Positions 3,351-40,312 of a DNA stretch of 41,222 nt are shown piece after piece. Below the pieces are notes generated by a model. The model was not told where the DNA came from. It saw nothing but the letters and a program-made list of their open reading frames with translations, and made no database searches. The stretch's first letter is position 1, and every line of letters starts with the position of its first letter. Source of the DNA: a phage; the sequence record NC_105863.1. The stretch is one strand, 5' to 3'. The position numbers were made by a program, and so were the translations under genes.

Positions 3351-3371
3351 AGCCCCGAAAGGGGCTTTCTT
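3351..3371 (+). terminator. rho-independent terminator-like hairpin (GCCCCGAAAGGGGC + T-run)
   Basis: Perfect 5-bp GC stem with GAAA loop followed by TTTCTT; same hairpin sequence recurs at 4921-4940. Confidence 0.5.
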
Positions 3372-4453: not shown

Positions 4454-4914
4454 TGATGGGCTTTTTCAAAGTAACTGACGTACCGTCTCGTCGCGTAGTC
4501 CAGTACGCCCGCGTGTCTGGCTCTGGCGAGAACGTGGTGTTTATTGAAGACGAAAGTGTACTCGGAACACCAGTGGACGATATGCCGTTTGCGGACAAGA
4601 CCGGTATTGCGCTGCCAGCGGCAGGTATGCTTTACGAGATTCCGTACCTGGCGGATGCTGGTGATGTGTATTTCTCCGTACAACCGCAGGACGCTGAACT
4701 GGCAGACGGCAGCGCAAATATCGCTGTCGAAGTTAAGGCGGGCAAAGCACCATATGCGCTGACCTGGTACAAAGACGGGAAGGAAGTGGTAAACGCCCCG
4801 GAAGAGGCTCTGTCTCTGACGGTTAACGCAGTTGGTGAATACTTCGTTAAAGTCACTGATGCCGATGGTATAGAGGCCGTAAGTAAAGCAGCGAAGGTTA
4901 CTAAGCCAGAATAA
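4453..4914 (+). CDS. Ig-like domain protein (possible head decoration/accessory protein)
   Basis: 153 aa; C-terminal segment YALTWYKDGKEV..GEYFVKVTDADG resembles an Ig-like (I-set/Big) beta-sandwich signature; ATGATG overlap with upstream stop. Confidence 0.4.
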   Translation: MMGFFKVTDVPSRRVVQYARVSGSGENVVFIEDESVLGTPVDDMPFADKTGIALPAAGMLYEIPYLADAGDVYFSVQPQDAELADGSANIAVEVKAGKAPYALTWYKDGKEVVNAPEEALSLTVNAVGEYFVKVTDADGIEAVSKAAKVTKPE

Positions 4915-4918
4915 ACTG

Positions 4919-4941
4919 AAGCCCCGAAAGGGGCTTTTTAG
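4919..4941 (+). terminator. rho-independent terminator (GCCCCGAAAGGGGC + TTTTTA)
   Basis: GC-rich hairpin immediately after stop of 4453-4914 ORF followed by T-run. Confidence 0.6.
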
Positions 4942-4989
4942 TGCCTGTGATTATTCCAGTTATTCCACTCAATTGTAAATGTTGTAATA

Positions 4990-5005
4990 AACTATTCGAA
5001 TAGTT
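4990..5005. promoter_or_regulatory. perfect 16-bp palindrome AACTATTCGAATAGTT abutting a -35 element (candidate operator)
   Basis: Sequence equals its own reverse complement; half-site AACTAT/ATAGTT recurs at early promoters (26455, 30162, 32269). Confidence 0.4.
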
Positions 5006-5032
5006 GACTTTTCACCAAAAATGTGCTAAGCT
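5004..5032 (+). promoter_or_regulatory. sigma70-like promoter (TTGACT -17- TAAGCT with extended -10 TG)
   Basis: -35 TTGACT 5004-5009, 17-bp spacer, TGcTAAGCT at 5024-5032; located in 340-bp noncoding gap upstream of spanin genes. Confidence 0.45.
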
Positions 5033-5256
5033 CCACCTGAGCTTGTGAAGTATGAACAAGCGACCGCGGCGCGGGCAGGTAACGGAGCGGGACGTAAGTC
5101 CTGAGTGTAGTTACGCTGACGCGTTCGGAAGGGCCATACTCTATTGCTTGTGTAAAAAGTAACTGGTTTACTGAGATTACGCCGTTTCTATGTTTAAATG
5201 ATAAGGTCTAGCGCCCCGCTTTAAGGCGGGGCTTTACTTATCGAGAAAGGGGAAAC

Positions 5257-5643
5257 ATGAATCTTAAAGCAACTGTCGTAGCGGGAGCATGTTTCATCAT
5301 CCTGGCTTACGCACACGGCATCTACCAGTATCGCAGCGGCTGGAACGGAGGCCGGGCGAATCTCGTTTCGCAGCAACAGCAGAAAGCACAGGCTGAGTTA
5401 GCTAAGAAAACACAACGGCAGCAGCAGGATGAATCGAAGGCCGCCGCCGCTGATAACGAAGGCAAGACGAAATCAGAGGTAATCACCCGTGAAGTCGTTA
5501 AGTACATTAAAACGCCTGGCCGCAGTGTGTGCACTTTTGACCCTGAGCGCGTGCAGCTCAAGTCCCGCGCCGTCGCAAACGCCAATTCCATCCCCGGATA
5601 CGACGATGATGCAGCCGCCGTGCAAACTGGCACTGCCAAGTAA
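5257..5643 (+). CDS. i-spanin (Rz-like inner-membrane spanin subunit)
   Basis: 128 aa; N-terminal TM helix (VVAGACFIILAYAHGIY) followed by Gln/Ala/Lys-rich predicted coiled coil; RBS AGAAAGGGGA; overlaps a lipoprotein ORF in another frame. Confidence 0.65.
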   Translation: MNLKATVVAGACFIILAYAHGIYQYRSGWNGGRANLVSQQQQKAQAELAKKTQRQQQDESKAAAADNEGKTKSEVITREVVKYIKTPGRSVCTFDPERVQLKSRAVANANSIPGYDDDAAAVQTGTAK

Positions 5644-5752
5644 CGACGCGGACGAGGATTTAGCTATTGACGTCCAGAACACAGAATGTGTACGGCAACT
5701 GAGACTTAAAGTGTTCATGTTGCGGGATTACGTGAGGAATATTCTGGAATAG
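5489..5752 (+). CDS. o-spanin (Rz1-like outer-membrane lipoprotein)
   Basis: 87 aa; GTG start with RBS AGAGG; signal peptide ending in lipobox LTLSAC; Pro-rich mature part (SSSPAPSQTPIPSPDTT) with Cys residues; starts inside i-spanin gene in +1 frame and extends past its stop. Confidence 0.7.
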   Translation: MKSLSTLKRLAAVCALLTLSACSSSPAPSQTPIPSPDTTMMQPPCKLALPSNDADEDLAIDVQNTECVRQLRLKVFMLRDYVRNILE

Positions 5753-5831
5753 TTGCCTTGTATGTTGGAATAATTTATTCTTGACATGTAAATCCGGGTG
5801 GCCCGGATTCCAACGTCCAGGGGACATACTG

Positions 5832-6458
5832 ATGAGCGAAGAAGTGAAAGACGAAACTATCGAACAACAAGAGACTAAGACCACGTTTACCAAAGAAGAA
5901 GTTGACGCGCTGGTATCCGGTCTTAAAGCTAACAACGAGAAACTCTTGTCTGAAAAGAAAGCTGCCGCCGCTGCCGCGAAAGAAGCCGCAGATGCGAAGC
6001 TGAAAGCCGAACAGGAACGCGCAAAACAGAACGGCGAACTTGAGGCATTCGAGAAAACGTTGCGCAGTCAGTATGAGCCAGTACTCGCCGATAAAGACGG
6101 TAAGATTAGCAAAATGGCTGAGCGTATCCTCGGCGCGGAACGTAAATCAGTTATCAGCCAGTTGTCTGGAATGTTGATTGATGAGAGCGCAGCGGATATT
6201 ATCGCTATGATGGTCAAGACCGAATTTGACGGCGATGACGTTGTGACCAAGTTCACAGGTGCAGACGGTAATGTCATCACCACCGACGCAGAGCAATTTA
6301 AAAAGTATCTGCGTGAGCACAAAGCATTTTCGCATCTGATTAAAGCAGATGCAGCAACCGGCGGCGGGGCTTCCGGTAACAAAAATTCTACTGGCGGGGC
6401 CGGTGGTGCGGACGTAATCCAGCAAAAACTTAACGCCAAATACGGCAAACGAGGATAA
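5832..6458 (+). CDS. scaffolding protein
   Basis: Ala/Glu/Lys-rich, predicted coiled-coil ORF directly upstream of major capsid gene; likely start ATG 5832 (MSEEVKDE) with RBS; ORF track start 5781. Confidence 0.55.
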   Translation: MSEEVKDETIEQQETKTTFTKEEVDALVSGLKANNEKLLSEKKAAAAAAKEAADAKLKAEQERAKQNGELEAFEKTLRSQYEPVLADKDGKISKMAERILGAERKSVISQLSGMLIDESAADIIAMMVKTEFDGDDVVTKFTGADGNVITTDAEQFKKYLREHKAFSHLIKADAATGGGASGNKNSTGGAGGADVIQQKLNAKYGKRG

Positions 6459-6464
6459 CAGAAT

Positions 6465-7433
6465 ATGTCTCTGTCAGATATGAAGGTTTATAACGACGAT
6501 ATCGTCGGTACCACTATCGAACTGCTTGGTCAGAAAACTGACCAGTTTAACGCAGCCTCCGGTGGTGCAATTGTACTGTCTACCGCTTCATGGCGCGGTG
6601 ACTTCTCCCGTGAGTCTTTCTTTAACCAGATTGCCTCCGCTAAACGCCGCGTTGACCGTTACGCCGCTATCGCGTCTCAGGCAGCTACCGCGCTGACTCA
6701 GGGCGAGCATGTAGGCGTTAAAGTCGCTGGCGGCTTCGGACCGGTACTGTTCGAGCCTGCGCAAATGACTTGGCTTAACGAAGACCCGGCAAGCGCGATT
6801 CGTGCTATTTCCGAAGGCTTCTCTGACGCACTGTTAGCGGACCAGCTCAACACCGCTGTTGGCGCAGCTGTTGCTGCGGTATCTGGTCAGGCCGCGCTGG
6901 TTAACGACGTATCTGCAACCGCTGGCTTGTCCCTGAACGTGCTGAACAACAGCCACGCTAAATTCGGCGACCAGTCTCAGCTGCTGATTACCGACATCAT
7001 GACTGGTGCTGCTTATCACACGCTGGTAGATAAAGCGCTGACTAACGCAAACCAGCTGTTCGTTGCCGGTAACGTTATGGTTGTCGATGTTCTCGGCAAG
7101 CGTTACGTAATCTCTGACATTCCTGCGCTGTACGGGGCCGGTACTCCGAACAAGACTAAGGTCCTGTCCGTAGTTGCAAACGGCATCATCGTTGATAATG
7201 CTTCTGATATTATCAGCAACATTGATACCAGCAACGGTAACACCCGCATCCAGACCACCTGGCAGGCGGATTACAGCTTCGGCCTGAAACTGAAAGGCTA
7301 TAGCTGGGATGTCGCCAACGGCGGTAAATCTCCGCTGGACGCAGAACTGTTCACCGCGACCAACTGGGACAAAGCTGTTGCCGAGAACAAGCACACCCTC
7401 GGTACTCTGGCAATCGCCGACGCGGACAAGTAA
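6465..7433 (+). CDS. major capsid protein
   Basis: 322-aa ORF after scaffold, RBS GAGGA, followed by strong terminator at 7452-7474; assignment by synteny and size. Confidence 0.65.
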   Translation: MSLSDMKVYNDDIVGTTIELLGQKTDQFNAASGGAIVLSTASWRGDFSRESFFNQIASAKRRVDRYAAIASQAATALTQGEHVGVKVAGGFGPVLFEPAQMTWLNEDPASAIRAISEGFSDALLADQLNTAVGAAVAAVSGQAALVNDVSATAGLSLNVLNNSHAKFGDQSQLLITDIMTGAAYHTLVDKALTNANQLFVAGNVMVVDVLGKRYVISDIPALYGAGTPNKTKVLSVVANGIIVDNASDIISNIDTSNGNTRIQTTWQADYSFGLKLKGYSWDVANGGKSPLDAELFTATNWDKAVAENKHTLGTLAIADADK

Positions 7434-10051: not shown

Positions 10052-11218
10052 ATGGCTACAACTCCTTTTAAGGGCGCGAATACCGCGCAATTCTATGTGG
10101 CGGAAGTCACCCCGGGCGTAACACCGACTAACCCGGTCTGGTCACCGTTGCGTAACACTGGCGGTGTTCCTGCTATCACCCGCGACACGCTGACCTCCAA
10201 CGAACTGGACGGCAGCCGTGAAACTACATCCATCCGCACCGGTAACAAACAGGTTAGCGGTGAATACGCGATCGAGCTTAGCTCGAAAAGCCAGGATGAC
10301 TGGCTGGCTGGTGCTTTAGGCTCTACGTGGCAATCCGGTGTTTCCCTGTCCAGTCTGTCGATTACCGTCGCACCGGCGGGCAAGACGTTCACACGCGCTA
10401 CCGGCAGTTTTATCACTGACGGAGTTGGGGTAGGCGACCTGATTGCATTTACCGATTTAACAGGCGATAACGCAAAACCATTTATTGTTACTGCAGTAAC
10501 GGCTACGGTTGTTACTGGTGCGGGCATCCAACACACCCTGACCACCGAGACAAAAACTAGTAAGGCTAAAACCGGCGACACGCTGGAAACCGGTAACACG
10601 TGTAAGACGTTCTCTATCCTTACCTGGTACAAAGGCCAGTGCGGCGGTACTGACGCGTACACGTTAACCAAAGGCGTGGAAGTTTCTGGTTTTACCATCG
10701 AACAGGCTGTTAACGCGATGGTAACTGGCAGCTTCCCATTCATCGGTCGCAGTCAGGAGATTCTCACTACGCCGCCGACCGGTTCCAACTTCTCATCTGT
10801 TACTTTTGGTGATGAGCCGTTCTCTTCGGTTGACGTTTCCGTGTTCGATGGCTCTACGCCGTTGCGTTGTGATAGCCTTACCATCACCAACGACAACAGC
10901 GCGTCCGCGCAGTTCGAACTCGGCAACACTAACGTGGCCTTTGTGGAACGTAGCCGCGCGGCTAACACCTTCTCCATCTCCGGCAAGCTGTACGACATGG
11001 CTATGATTCAGAAGTTTATCAACGAGCAACAGGTAGAGATTAACTCTATTCTGGCGGGGGTAAACGGGGCTATGTCTTTCAGTTTGAAACGTGCAGAACT
11101 TACGGCGGTTACACCTGAGATTGGAGGACCTGAGTCAATCACTCAGTCTATTGAAGGCCAGGCTACTGGCAACCAGTACCAGTCGTCTATTGTTATCCAG
11201 CGTATCACCTACGCATAA
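10052..11218 (+). CDS. major tail protein
   Basis: 388 aa from ATG 10052 (RBS AAGAGG); Thr/Ser/Gly-rich; followed by strong bidirectional terminator; position before chaperone/tape-measure genes. Confidence 0.5.
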   Translation: MATTPFKGANTAQFYVAEVTPGVTPTNPVWSPLRNTGGVPAITRDTLTSNELDGSRETTSIRTGNKQVSGEYAIELSSKSQDDWLAGALGSTWQSGVSLSSLSITVAPAGKTFTRATGSFITDGVGVGDLIAFTDLTGDNAKPFIVTAVTATVVTGAGIQHTLTTETKTSKAKTGDTLETGNTCKTFSILTWYKGQCGGTDAYTLTKGVEVSGFTIEQAVNAMVTGSFPFIGRSQEILTTPPTGSNFSSVTFGDEPFSSVDVSVFDGSTPLRCDSLTITNDNSASAQFELGNTNVAFVERSRAANTFSISGKLYDMAMIQKFINEQQVEINSILAGVNGAMSFSLKRAELTAVTPEIGGPESITQSIEGQATGNQYQSSIVIQRITYA

Positions 11219-11220
11219 AA

Positions 11221-11256
11221 CTAAGGCCCCGTTTGGGGCCTTAGTTTTTTTTTTCT
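11221..11256. terminator. bidirectional rho-independent terminator (AAGGCCCCGTTTGGGGCCTT + T11)
   Basis: 8-bp GC stem with T-run on plus strand and AGTTTTAT on minus strand; sits between convergent major tail gene (+) and kinase gene (-). Confidence 0.7.
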
Positions 11257-37201: not shown

Positions 37202-37330
37202 ATGAAAGATTATAGCGAAGTAACTTTAGGTGAGTTGCAGGACGAGTACGAAGATATGCGCTACCCGTTCATCTGCGACGGGGACTACAACGGCGTCTAT
37301 AACGGGGTGAGCGAAGAATATGAACACTAA
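37202..37330 (+). CDS. micro-ORF (42 aa, acidic)
   Basis: RBS GAGAGGGGAG upstream of ATG 37202; coordinates approximate. Confidence 0.25.
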   Translation: MKDYSEVTLGELQDEYEDMRYPFICDGDYNGVYNGVSEEYEH

Positions 37331-37799
37331 AAACGAAATATTCGAGTACCTGATCGACCAGCTACGGCAGCAGGTAAATAACAGCCGGAGCGAAGACCTG
37401 GCGCATGAGGTGCAGTCACTTAAGAATCAGTTACGTGATGCGTCAGAACATATTAAGGAGTTGCATAAGGCGTTGGCTACAGCTACAGGTGACATAGGCG
37501 CTTATATAGCAGCAGAGCAATCTGGTTGCCGTAAGGAAGATACTCAGTACAACGCCTGGAGGCCGCATTATGGTGCACGACAACCTGTGCCGGATGGGAC
37601 TATGGTATTTATCCGGTATCGCAACGGGGTGGAGCCGAAACACAGTGTAGCAGCAGAAAAGCGGTCGTGGATTTGGGATGGAACATACGCAGACATAGTG
37701 GAATACAAGATTGACACACAGGAATGTGAACATGACTATCGTTTGGTTCTGTGGTGTAGCGACTTACAGCAGTGCTCTAAATGCGGGGTGATCAAATGA
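37320..37799 (+). CDS. hypothetical protein with N-terminal coiled coil and C-terminal CEHDYRL..CxxCG motif
   Basis: 159 aa; C-terminus ECEHDYRLVLWCSDLQQCSKCG shared with ORF 40064-40312. Confidence 0.45.
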   Translation: MNTKNEIFEYLIDQLRQQVNNSRSEDLAHEVQSLKNQLRDASEHIKELHKALATATGDIGAYIAAEQSGCRKEDTQYNAWRPHYGARQPVPDGTMVFIRYRNGVEPKHSVAAEKRSWIWDGTYADIVEYKIDTQECEHDYRLVLWCSDLQQCSKCGVIK

Positions 37800-39889: not shown

Positions 39890-40071
39890 CTGACCGTGAA
39901 TACGAAAAGATGATGGTAGAGGCTGTTAACGGCGGCGTAGACATCGGTCACGTGATGCACGTCCTGAATACTAAAATCGCAGTAGCTGAGCAGATGGTTG
40001 AGTCGCTTTACGGGACACGCCGTGAACTGATTAACCGCTTCAACCTGAACAAGGGTGATACCAATGCCTAA
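39886..40071 (+). CDS. small hypothetical protein (61 aa)
   Basis: ATG 39886 overlapping upstream stop (ORF track 39871). Confidence 0.4.
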   Translation: MTDREYEKMMVEAVNGGVDIGHVMHVLNTKIAVAEQMVESLYGTRRELINRFNLNKGDTNA

Positions 40072-40312
40072 AATCACAATCGCATCACTCGAACGCCGTA
40101 TTATGGTGCTCGAGTCAGAGAAACAGACGTTAGGCGGGCAACTGTCGATTAACGGTGAGTACCAGTTAGCCGCATTTAAGGTTCTTCTCATGTTGTTGAG
40201 AGGAGAAGAGGAAAAGATGAACGCCTGCGAGCATGATTACCGCCTGCATTTAGTTGATGGGGTGCATCGAGCCACATGCTTAAAATGCGGTAAAGCGTAT
40301 GGAGTCGCCTAA
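40064..40312 (+). CDS. hypothetical protein with C-terminal CEHDYRL..CxxCG motif
   Basis: C-terminus ACEHDYRLHLVDGVHRATCLKCGKA parallels 37320-37799 ORF. Confidence 0.45.
   Translation: MPKITIASLERRIMVLESEKQTLGGQLSINGEYQLAAFKVLLMLLRGEEEKMNACEHDYRLHLVDGVHRATCLKCGKAYGVA

Follow-up and report, generated by a model that had tools for sequence, protein, structure and literature searches.

A conserved predicted promoter and putative structured leader RNA preceding the spanin genes of Guernseyvirinae phages

Two described phage systems are the natural points of comparison for the locus reported here, the PR'-6S-tR' arrangement of lambda, which works by Q-dependent antitermination and whose 6S RNA is 194 nucleotides (nt) long, and the put sites of HK022. 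The put RNA is a processive antitermination RNA that suppresses downstream terminators in cis; it is about 73 nt long, folds into two stem-loops in a V shape and binds the beta' zinc-binding domain of RNA polymerase, and it occurs twice per genome, as putL and putR (PMC9378689). Our subject is the gene-free gap in front of the spanin genes in the phage sequence NC_105863.1, of which the whole 41,222 nt (41.2 kilobases, kb; hereafter the window) were analysed and which represents the complete or near-complete genome of a Kagunavirus-like siphophage of the subfamily Guernseyvirinae. An earlier note, made from the letters of the sequence, had described positions 4942-5256 as a coding-free stretch of 315 base pairs (bp) that would specify either a noncoding RNA of roughly 200 nt or a leader through which the spanin genes are controlled by attenuation. 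The stretch is indeed noncoding, but its limits needed correction: the stop of the upstream gene lies at 4914, the real gap is 4915-5256 (342 nt), and inside it there is a 36-codon open reading frame (ORF) at 5052-5162, which is not conserved. Likewise, of the two readings offered, what they had in common stood (a noncoding gap with a promoter and a conserved structured RNA before the spanin ribosome-binding site), while the read-through context favours the leader. We propose, with a probability of roughly 0.6, that the gap comprises a promoter and a cis-acting structured 5' leader of a late spanin-scaffold-capsid operon, carrying a lineage-specific leaky attenuator hairpin. The RNA element is of a familiar kind, but in the literature searched we found no description of the promoter-leader element, and a Kagunavirus transcriptome paper reports gene-level classes only.

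Promoter, conservation and predicted fold of the leader

A stretch of 401 nt around the leader is 95-99.5% identical in 178 records of Escherichia, Salmonella, Shigella and Raoultella phages, and it gave no match among 5,426 complete E. coli genomes. Using DNA searches, pattern scans of IMG/VR and searches anchored on the spanin genes, we found the promoter-leader module, that is, upstream motifs, a promoter, 160-300 nt of noncoding sequence and the spanin start, directly before the Rz/Rz1 spanins in about 480 public phage records, and all module records with taxonomy shown are Guernseyvirinae. The module comes in four forms: type 1, which is that of the window, in 178 records (Kagunaviruses and some Jerseyviruses); type T2 in 269 records (most Jerseyviruses); type B in 12 full-length records (phiEap-2, Cornellvirus-like Salmonella phages and Hafnia phage TS33); and type C (Shemara, TS6 and Pantoea AH01), which has only its 3' third in common with B and a different 5' part. 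A shorter, degenerate module is present in Serratia phage Tsm2. Vibrio phage LP.2, one of the more distant phages with a related capsid, possesses neither the spanins nor the gap, and only 87 nt separate its head-morphogenesis and scaffold genes.

The extended -10 promoter that the earlier note had placed at 5004-5032 is present there, with its elements as listed in Table 1. The sequence, TTGACT-N14-TGc-TAAGCT, has the features by which extended -10 sigma-70 promoters are recognised (the TG, A2 and T6 of the hexamer and the 17-nt spacing to the -35), and its geometry is invariant across three types. At over 60 loci, drawn from types 1, T2 and B, the -35 T(T/A/G/C)GA(C/T)T is followed by exactly 14 nt, TGn and TA(A/C)(G/C)CT; the spacer bases and the n of TGn vary freely, while T-G, TA and the final T are invariant. 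A functional extended -10 promoter would be expected to show just such a fixed architecture around a free spacer, and activity is predicted on this ground. An independent annotation, by the depositors of phage phi135, also has a promoter here. The -10, by its position, leads us to infer a transcription start at G5039 or A5040. The type C promoter region (L215 380-440, L216, L217) was observed to carry another conserved element, CTATTGACAC-N-TTTTGTATAATGC-CTTGACCTAAC, in which a mere 8 nt separate TTGACA from TATAAT, a geometry foreign to sigma-70, and several GUAA-capped hairpins follow it.

The earlier note had named a lack of conservation in related phages as evidence against its reading; the leader proved to be conserved, and better so than the coding sequence on either side. 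In 40-nt bins, the nucleotide diversity of 30 distinct type 1 sequences was 0.008-0.04 over 5032-5271, compared with 0.05-0.157 in the spanin genes, the variation in the transcribed part, 5033-5256, being three to ten times lower than in the spanin genes next to it. In the comparison with Salmonella phage ER1 the leader region showed 95.5% identity, the i-spanin protein 75.8% and the surrounding 2.4 kb 86%. The leader is present as a single copy, and no second copy of the kind known for nut or put sites was found in the genome.

Since the arms of the predicted fold are not alignable across types, the helices were tested within type 1: the structure (P1, the arm with its apical hairpin, P4 and the terminal hairpin) was named first and the pairs were then counted on 29 type 1 variants. 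In the named helices 98.6% of cells pair. Both-sided changes occurred at 5 pairs, compared with a mean of 0.2 in shuffles, none of 500 of which reached five, and with 0-1 in slid controls; the remaining type 1 variation lies mostly in loops or is wobble-compatible. In P1 the pairs hold throughout the 29 variants, a single U-A having turned into U-G, and at its place T2 has a hairpin of different sequence, ACGCU-UUC-AGCGU, as has B, GUUC-UAC-GAAC. The long arm shows double-sided changes at 4 pairs, and its apical stem is compensated in type 1 and, in the different arm of T2, once again; SLMP1 lacks the arm, deleted exactly at its base, and B and C have other arms, usually with GNRA tetraloops. 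In P4 the type 1 variants differ in the loop (5164-5166) or, in the stem, by changes compatible with wobble pairing; P4 is not recognisable in T2. Directly 3' of the arm, types 1, T2 and B share the heptamer CGGAAGG without variation; both it and GGAAGGG[CT]C are unique in the window; in type B the CGGAAGG is able to pair with a downstream CCCU(U)C, and in Hafnia phage TS33 the motif CGGAAGGGCC is altered to CGAGAGGC. Three elements keep their place across types 1, T2 and B: the 5'-end hairpin, the CGGAAGG motif and the terminal hairpin. By this pattern of variation the transcribed part is under selection as RNA, and selection on the promoter is clear as well.

A different identity for the conserved sequence would be a small protein, the 36-residue product MNKRPRRGQVTERDVSPECSYADAFGRAILYCLCKK of 5052-5162 (+), and an ATG-initiated ORF of 36 codons is indeed present and appears in the annotation of Shashou and others as a hypothetical protein with a ribosome-binding site. 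However, a truncation or frameshift breaks the ORF in 5 of the 29 type 1 variants, its product being cut to 9 or 17 residues or shifted into unrelated sequence; the start region of the ORF is missing in SLMP1, T2 and B, where other ORFs in other frames have been called; and the variation has no third-position pattern and tracks the helices and loops instead. We therefore rejected it as a gene, and consider a function as a peptide to be extremely improbable. A mini-ORF following the Shine-Dalgarno-like GGAAGGG was also rejected, not being conserved across types. The homologous leaders carry short 'hypothetical protein' calls that differ from record to record, in TO17 (L160 2085-2857), phi135 (L218 433-552) and Shashou (L001 3153-3263), and in TO17 the i-spanin call (gp03) has been extended upstream through the leader; such short ORF calls look like annotation artefacts.

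The leader did not match any described RNA family either. The covariance search that the earlier note had proposed was run with Rfam 15 over 4700-5500 (E <=10), and gave matches far below the gathering score, none of them spanning the leader; the homologous leaders of SLMP1, phiEap-2, TO17, Tsm2 and wast were equally without a match in the leader (E <=1). ARAGORN found no tRNA or tmRNA in the window. Several Jerseyvirus records contain a 'tRNA-Ser' on the minus strand (e.g. Salmonella phage wast L211 550-627; L042 5636-5714), which overlaps the end of the Hoc-like gene and the terminator, just left of the TTATTCC repeat and not in the leader. Of 21 loci, ARAGORN reported it at just one, and the terminator hairpin has probably given rise to a false call.

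The terminal hairpin and probable transcription into the late genes

The GC-rich hairpin that had been described at about 5211-5236, before the spanin ribosome-binding site, was located at 5213-5232, where it is followed by UUUACUUAU and the Shine-Dalgarno sequence. Its folding free energy is -15.8 kcal/mol, its tail has just three consecutive U, and in the window it qualifies as an intrinsic terminator. Scored by a d'Aubenton-Carafa-type discriminant with current energy parameters, it reached +8 to +14, compared with +14.4 for the accepted upstream terminator at 4919-4936. The homologous hairpin of T2 scored -5.9, and those of type B scored -45 (phiEap-2) and -41 (TO17), both being followed by UGUUACG; all of them lack a U-tract and score as non-terminators. 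Termination is therefore not the function that keeps the hairpin family-wide, and for the same reason a leader is favoured over a separate small RNA. The stem itself is maintained, the C-G pair 5217-5228 having become A-U in one lineage and U-A in another. Pairing of the C-rich arm of a hairpin with the Shine-Dalgarno sequence was considered and rejected, as a GGGG/GGAG polymorphism at 5251 occurs without a compensating change.

The same hairpin is an argument for a free-standing noncoding RNA, which would run for about 195 nt from the promoter at 5004-5032 to the hairpin at 5213-5232, would accumulate as lambda 6S does and possibly act in trans, the late genes being reached by regulated read-through. 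Besides the score of the hairpin with its tail, which is about as good as that of the accepted terminator at 4919-4936, the layout parallels lambda PR'-6S-tR', and the body of the RNA is more conserved than a mere spacer would require. On the other hand, the hairpins of T2, the type with 269 records, and of B do not terminate by this score, and a tail of three U makes a poor 3' end of the Hfq type. Moreover, the lambda scheme would call for an antiterminator: ten small candidate regulators searched against PHROGs, eight of them also in Pfam, included no member of a Q-like family, and there is no Q-like antiterminator in the annotation of K1ind1 or phiEap-2, so that neither the small proteins tested nor the annotation of a close relative offered a Q-like or other antiterminator. 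The element is single-copy and has no similarity to the late region of lambda or a lambdoid phage; comparison with lambda 43800-45600 and with the Q-lysis region of Klebsiella phage 2 LV-2017 by nhmmer gave no match, and blastn-short gave only chance 9-14-mers. The spanin of this lambdoid Klebsiella phage is distantly related to that of the window. The annotation of Shashou, which has terminators 3' of the Ig-like gene and of the capsid gene, has none at the hairpin 5213-5232.

The supply of the spanin messenger bears on the same question. Between the terminator at 4919-4936 and the spanins there is no plus-strand promoter candidate besides 5004-5032. With a terminator upstream and no other candidate, this promoter must supply at least the spanin mRNA, and transcription from it must therefore pass through the hairpin at 5213-5232. 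It probably also supplies the scaffold-capsid-tail tube operon, up to the strong terminator at 11217-11248. Taken with these points, a free-standing RNA as the main product of the locus appears unlikely to us. Termination at 5213-5232 would be at most partial, which leaves room for a possible by-product of about 195 nt in Kagunaviruses; a separate RNA of this size is thus possible in this lineage, but it is not the conserved function.

Upstream motifs and the surrounding genes

The block that is conserved in all relatives starts at 4951 with the tandem repeat. In type 1 the order is repeat, linker, AATTGTAAAT, the dyad GGAATAA-N-CTATTC (GTAATAA in the window) and then the -35, and among the 30 type 1 variants the 4-nt linker at 4967-4970 between the repeat and the conserved block is hypervariable. 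The dyad reads GGAATAAACTATTC in the majority of type 1; its T2 form is GGAATACTTTATTC(C/A) and its B form GGAATAAATTATTCC. The interval from the spanins to the scaffold gene holds a second copy, GGAATAATTTATTC (5767-5780), and beside it the TGTAAAT of the block 4971-4980 reappears at 5787-5793. The repeats and dyads look like candidate sites for a DNA-binding regulator. The repeat at 4951-4966 may be either a protein-binding motif or part of a minus-strand extended -10-like TGGAATAAT; the promoter scan gave a minus-strand promoter-like match at 4979-4950 overlapping the repeats, and such a promoter could drive the leftward accessory genes found here in some relatives.

The perfect 16-bp palindrome to which the earlier note had given weight does exist at 4990-5005, but this emphasis has to be withdrawn. 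It is the only perfect palindrome of 16 bp in the window, yet Markov simulations gave a mean of 0.73 per window and at least one in 52% of simulations, which is chance level; and it belongs to type 1 only, where most variants have it intact and four departures by a single base occur. The element that is common to the types is the GGAATAA-N-TATTC dyad together with the TTATTCC repeats.

These motifs also raise the alternative that the gap functions as DNA, either as a cluster of protein sites (for instance operators of divergent promoters, or, with the primase-helicase, an iteron-type origin or a replication region acting in cis) or as a recombination linker, the folds being incidental. The TTATTCC/GGAATAA motifs recur at 5767-5780, 10 of the 18 TTATTCC motifs of phiEap-2 cluster inside 1.2 kb around the spanin genes and the whole repeat recurs there in inverted form, the conserved blocks are split by a hypervariable linker, a minus-strand extended -10-like promoter overlaps the repeats, and the gap lies between swapped segments, with nuclease genes upstream and two unrelated capsid types downstream. 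However, the motif cluster (4951-5005) is upstream of the start, while the best-conserved part, 5032-5271, is devoid of such repeats, and the Watson-Crick compensation, the loop-biased variation and the interchangeable GNRA-capped arms are signatures of RNA. What this alternative explains is the half upstream of the promoter, and it more likely coexists with the leader than replaces it; as a replacement we judge it very unlikely.

Further observations were made on these motifs. In phiEap-2 (L212, 12630-12736 and 11500-11540) there are two dyads between the o-spanin and scaffold genes, and some 300 bp upstream the TTATTCCAGTTATTCC repeat occurs inverted; when the collections were scanned for the TTATTCCAGTTATTCC motif, most of what came back was AT-rich sequence matching by chance. 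As a DnaA box, TTATTCCAC was rejected, since by eye it agrees with the TTATCCACA consensus at just 6 of 9 positions. A second conserved noncoding element occupies 5753-5835 in the gap between the o-spanin and scaffold genes and contains GGAATAATTTATTC, TTGACA, TGTAAAT and a hairpin, AAUCCGGG-UGG-CCCGGAUU, which is compensated to GCCGGG/CCCGGC in phiEap-2, lacks a U-tract and has a discriminant of -60. Another dyad, AATAG-N4-CTATT, occurs six times in the window (26460, 30167, 32274, 13692, 35841 and 37158); in three minus-strand promoters of replication genes (26483, 30190, 32297) it sits between a consensus TTGACx and TATAGT, which is an operator position, and its half-site CTATT(C/A) is similar to the CTATTC within the 4990-5005 palindrome, though arranged the other way round. 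In the related phage fBC-Eco01 the same motif, written tgAATAGTa-ccTATTat-T and with 7 copies, was reported as 'phage RNA polymerase promoters' (PMC9825357). The annotation of K1ind1 and phiEap-2 contains no RNA polymerase gene.

Two small proteins, encoded at 37320-37799 and 40055-40312 and otherwise unrelated, were seen to end in the same C-terminal motif, (E/A)CEHDYRL...C(S/L)KCG, which is zinc ribbon-like. Both fall in PHROG families of unknown function, and 40055-40312 corresponds in position to a K1ind1 ORF annotated as 'RNA-binding protein'. Either of these Cys/His-motif proteins could be a partner of the DNA motifs or of the leader.

The spanin pair comprises the first genes 3' of the leader, and the scaffold and major capsid genes come next; holin and endolysin are about 33 kb away, so that only the spanins directly follow the leader. 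The terminator at 4919-4936, with its discriminant of +14.4, was reported by the scan on the minus strand and is a terminator in the Shashou annotation. An identical 18-nt terminator stem-loop, GAAGCCCCGAAAGGGGCT, is found 3' of the portal gene (3351-3368) and 3' of the Ig-like decoration gene (4920-4937), and in relatives reverse-strand accessory genes (sliding-clamp-like, nuclease) are inserted beside both copies. An apparent second place of the leader in relatives, suggested by BLAST, was merely this duplicated stem. The major capsid gene, 6465-7433, is of a minority type found at more than 90% identity in about 20 phage records (phiEap-2 93%; Vibrio phages about 62%), and most Kagunaviruses have an unrelated capsid gene at the same place, which puts a mosaic boundary just downstream of the spanins.

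Table 1. Features of the promoter-leader locus and its flanks (positions in the window)
Feature	Position	Strand	Remarks
Ig/Hoc-like decoration gene, 153 residues	4453-4914		upstream of the gap
Intrinsic terminator of the upstream terminase-portal-head morphogenesis-Ig-like operon	4919-4936	both strands possible	AAGCCCCGAAAGGGGCTT, then TTTTAG
Tandem direct repeat TTATTCCAG/TTATTCC	4951-4966	+	9-bp period; repeat family D4; invariant or nearly so in types 1, T2 and B
Conserved block AATTGTAAAT	4971-4980	+	30 type 1 variants
Degenerate dyad GTAATAAACTATTCG	4981-4995		centre about -50 from predicted start; palindromic element common to the sequence types
Perfect 16-bp palindrome AACTATTCGAATAGTT	4990-5005		inverted repeat I7; overlaps the -35 by two bases and the dyad; type 1-specific
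Sigma-70-type promoter (predicted)	5004-5032	+	-35 TTGACT 5004-5009; 17-nt spacer; TG 5024-5025; -10 TAAGCT 5027-5032
Predicted untranslated leader RNA, about 215 nt	5039-5256	+	start taken from the -10 position
P1 hairpin at RNA 5' end	5041-5061	+	GCUUGU, 9-nt loop, ACAAGC; 5041-5046 with 5056-5061
Long irregular arm (predicted fold)	5068-5125	+	base helix 5068-5073/5120-5125, then 5076-5083/5110-5118
Apical hairpin of the arm	5089-5102	+	GUAA tetraloop
Conserved motif CGGAAGGGCC	5126-5135	+	directly 3' of the arm
P4 hairpin (predicted fold)	5158-5172	+	AGUAA, loop CUGGU, UUACU
GC-rich terminal hairpin and tail UUUACUUAU	5213-5241	+	stem 5213-5232: 8 pairs, 7 of them G-C; loop UUAA
Shine-Dalgarno AAAGGGG	5246-5252	+	spanin ATG follows at 5257
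i-spanin gene	5257-5643	+	ORF with N-terminal membrane helix; Rz-like spanin in relatives' annotation
o-spanin gene, embedded in the i-spanin gene	5489-5752	+	lipobox; Rz1-type; Rz-like spanins in relatives' annotation

Proposed mechanism and comparison with known systems

The palindrome, the -10 and the fold are each weak alone, and the case therefore rests on the comparison with relatives. Judged on such comparative grounds, namely the promoter geometry, the conservation and the compensatory changes, the observation is real and above chance. Several points nevertheless weigh against our proposal. The -10 hexamer agrees with TATAAT at only 3 of 6 positions, and for this reason a generic promoter scan missed the promoter at 5004-5032. 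An extended -10-like TGGAATAAT at 5766-5774 is a possible promoter of the scaffold and capsid genes themselves, which would make read-through less obligatory; only if it is inactive must the promoter at 5004-5032 also serve the essential downstream genes. The RNA folding proposed in the earlier note did yield several hairpins, but the fold of the whole leader is marginal (z = -1.97 against shuffles). Much of the type 1 covariation comes from one divergent and possibly recombinant sequence (L017), so that the independent events are few, and since the arms cannot be aligned between types, RNAalifold, given a MAFFT alignment of all of them, retrieved nothing but the terminal hairpin. Part of the high conservation may stem from a mosaic junction at which recombination is frequent, and not from a function of the RNA. 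Finally, the transcription start, the read-through, the partial termination and the role of the leader are things that we infer.

In the mechanism which we propose, host RNA polymerase with sigma-70 would start at about 5039/5040 from the promoter at 5004-5032, upstream of which the TTATTCC repeats and the dyad near -50 may bind a regulator. The first 215 nt or so of the transcript would fold into P1, the GUAA-capped arm, the CGGAAGGGCC stretch, P4 and the terminal hairpin, which would end up about 25 nt before the spanin start codon. The terminal hairpin with UUUACUUAU would probably end a fraction of the transcripts, as a leaky attenuator, and the remainder would read on, giving an operon that extends from the spanins into the scaffold, major capsid, head-completion and tail-tube genes. 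The late mRNA would be stabilised by the 5' hairpin, and the folded body is likely to set or time the output of the spanin and late genes. It is also conceivable, though we hold it to be quite unlikely, that the leader represents a new class of phage regulatory RNA, with interchangeable arms around the invariant CGGAAGG core, that itself modifies the polymerase transcribing it or senses a phage or host factor, so as to time the expression of spanins and capsid, and that the Kagunavirus RNA of about 195 nt additionally acts in trans on the host.

Among the phages most often isolated, and most often put forward for use against E. coli and Salmonella in therapy and biocontrol, are the Kagunaviruses and Jerseyviruses, and the control of their late transcription is essentially unstudied. 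The promoter-leader is the clearest regulatory landmark of the structural module, and the promoter probably drives the most abundant virion proteins. Its recognition corrects a recurring annotation error, the short "hypothetical proteins" placed inside the leader, and it offers a defined target for the engineering of expression or lysis timing as well as a candidate for a new RNA family with at least three sequence types. Should the RNA prove to act on the polymerase or on the host, a mechanism would be added; should it be only a stabilising leader, the finding would be useful but ordinary.

Compared with lambda PR'-6S-tR', the locus shows a like succession of a predicted sigma-70 promoter with a -35 TTGACT, a noncoding stretch of about 195 nt, a GC-rich hairpin, and lysis genes followed by virion genes. 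It differs in that the hairpin here is weak as a terminator and a non-terminator in the sister types, and in that only the spanins follow the leader, holin and endolysin being elsewhere. The body of lambda 6S is not known to require a conserved fold, whereas this leader is conserved and structured. The module further resembles phage 'moron' cassettes, since the promoter-leader-spanin unit lies between similar TTATTC...TGTAAAT sequences and LP.2 is without the unit; unlike such cassettes, the unit is universal in the subfamily and not sporadic. A likeness to the 5' stabiliser hairpins of long-lived mRNAs of bacteria and phages, such as that of the ompA 5' untranslated region, is seen in the hairpin that lies 1-2 nt from the predicted 5' end, is kept in all three types and precedes genes needing very high expression. 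For a stabiliser the first hairpin suffices, however, and a further 170 nt of conserved structured sequence, together with the invariant CGGAAGG, remain unexplained by it. With HK022 put, to which we liken it by description only, the leader has in common that a folded RNA lies just 3' of a phage promoter, has no dedicated protein gene and stands ahead of hairpins and terminators in a long operon (5213, 5793 and 7455 in the window). It is larger than put, with about 215 nt and at least four helices, and has a single copy. By analogy, HK022 put would be the closest mechanistic counterpart for a leader that works independently of a protein.

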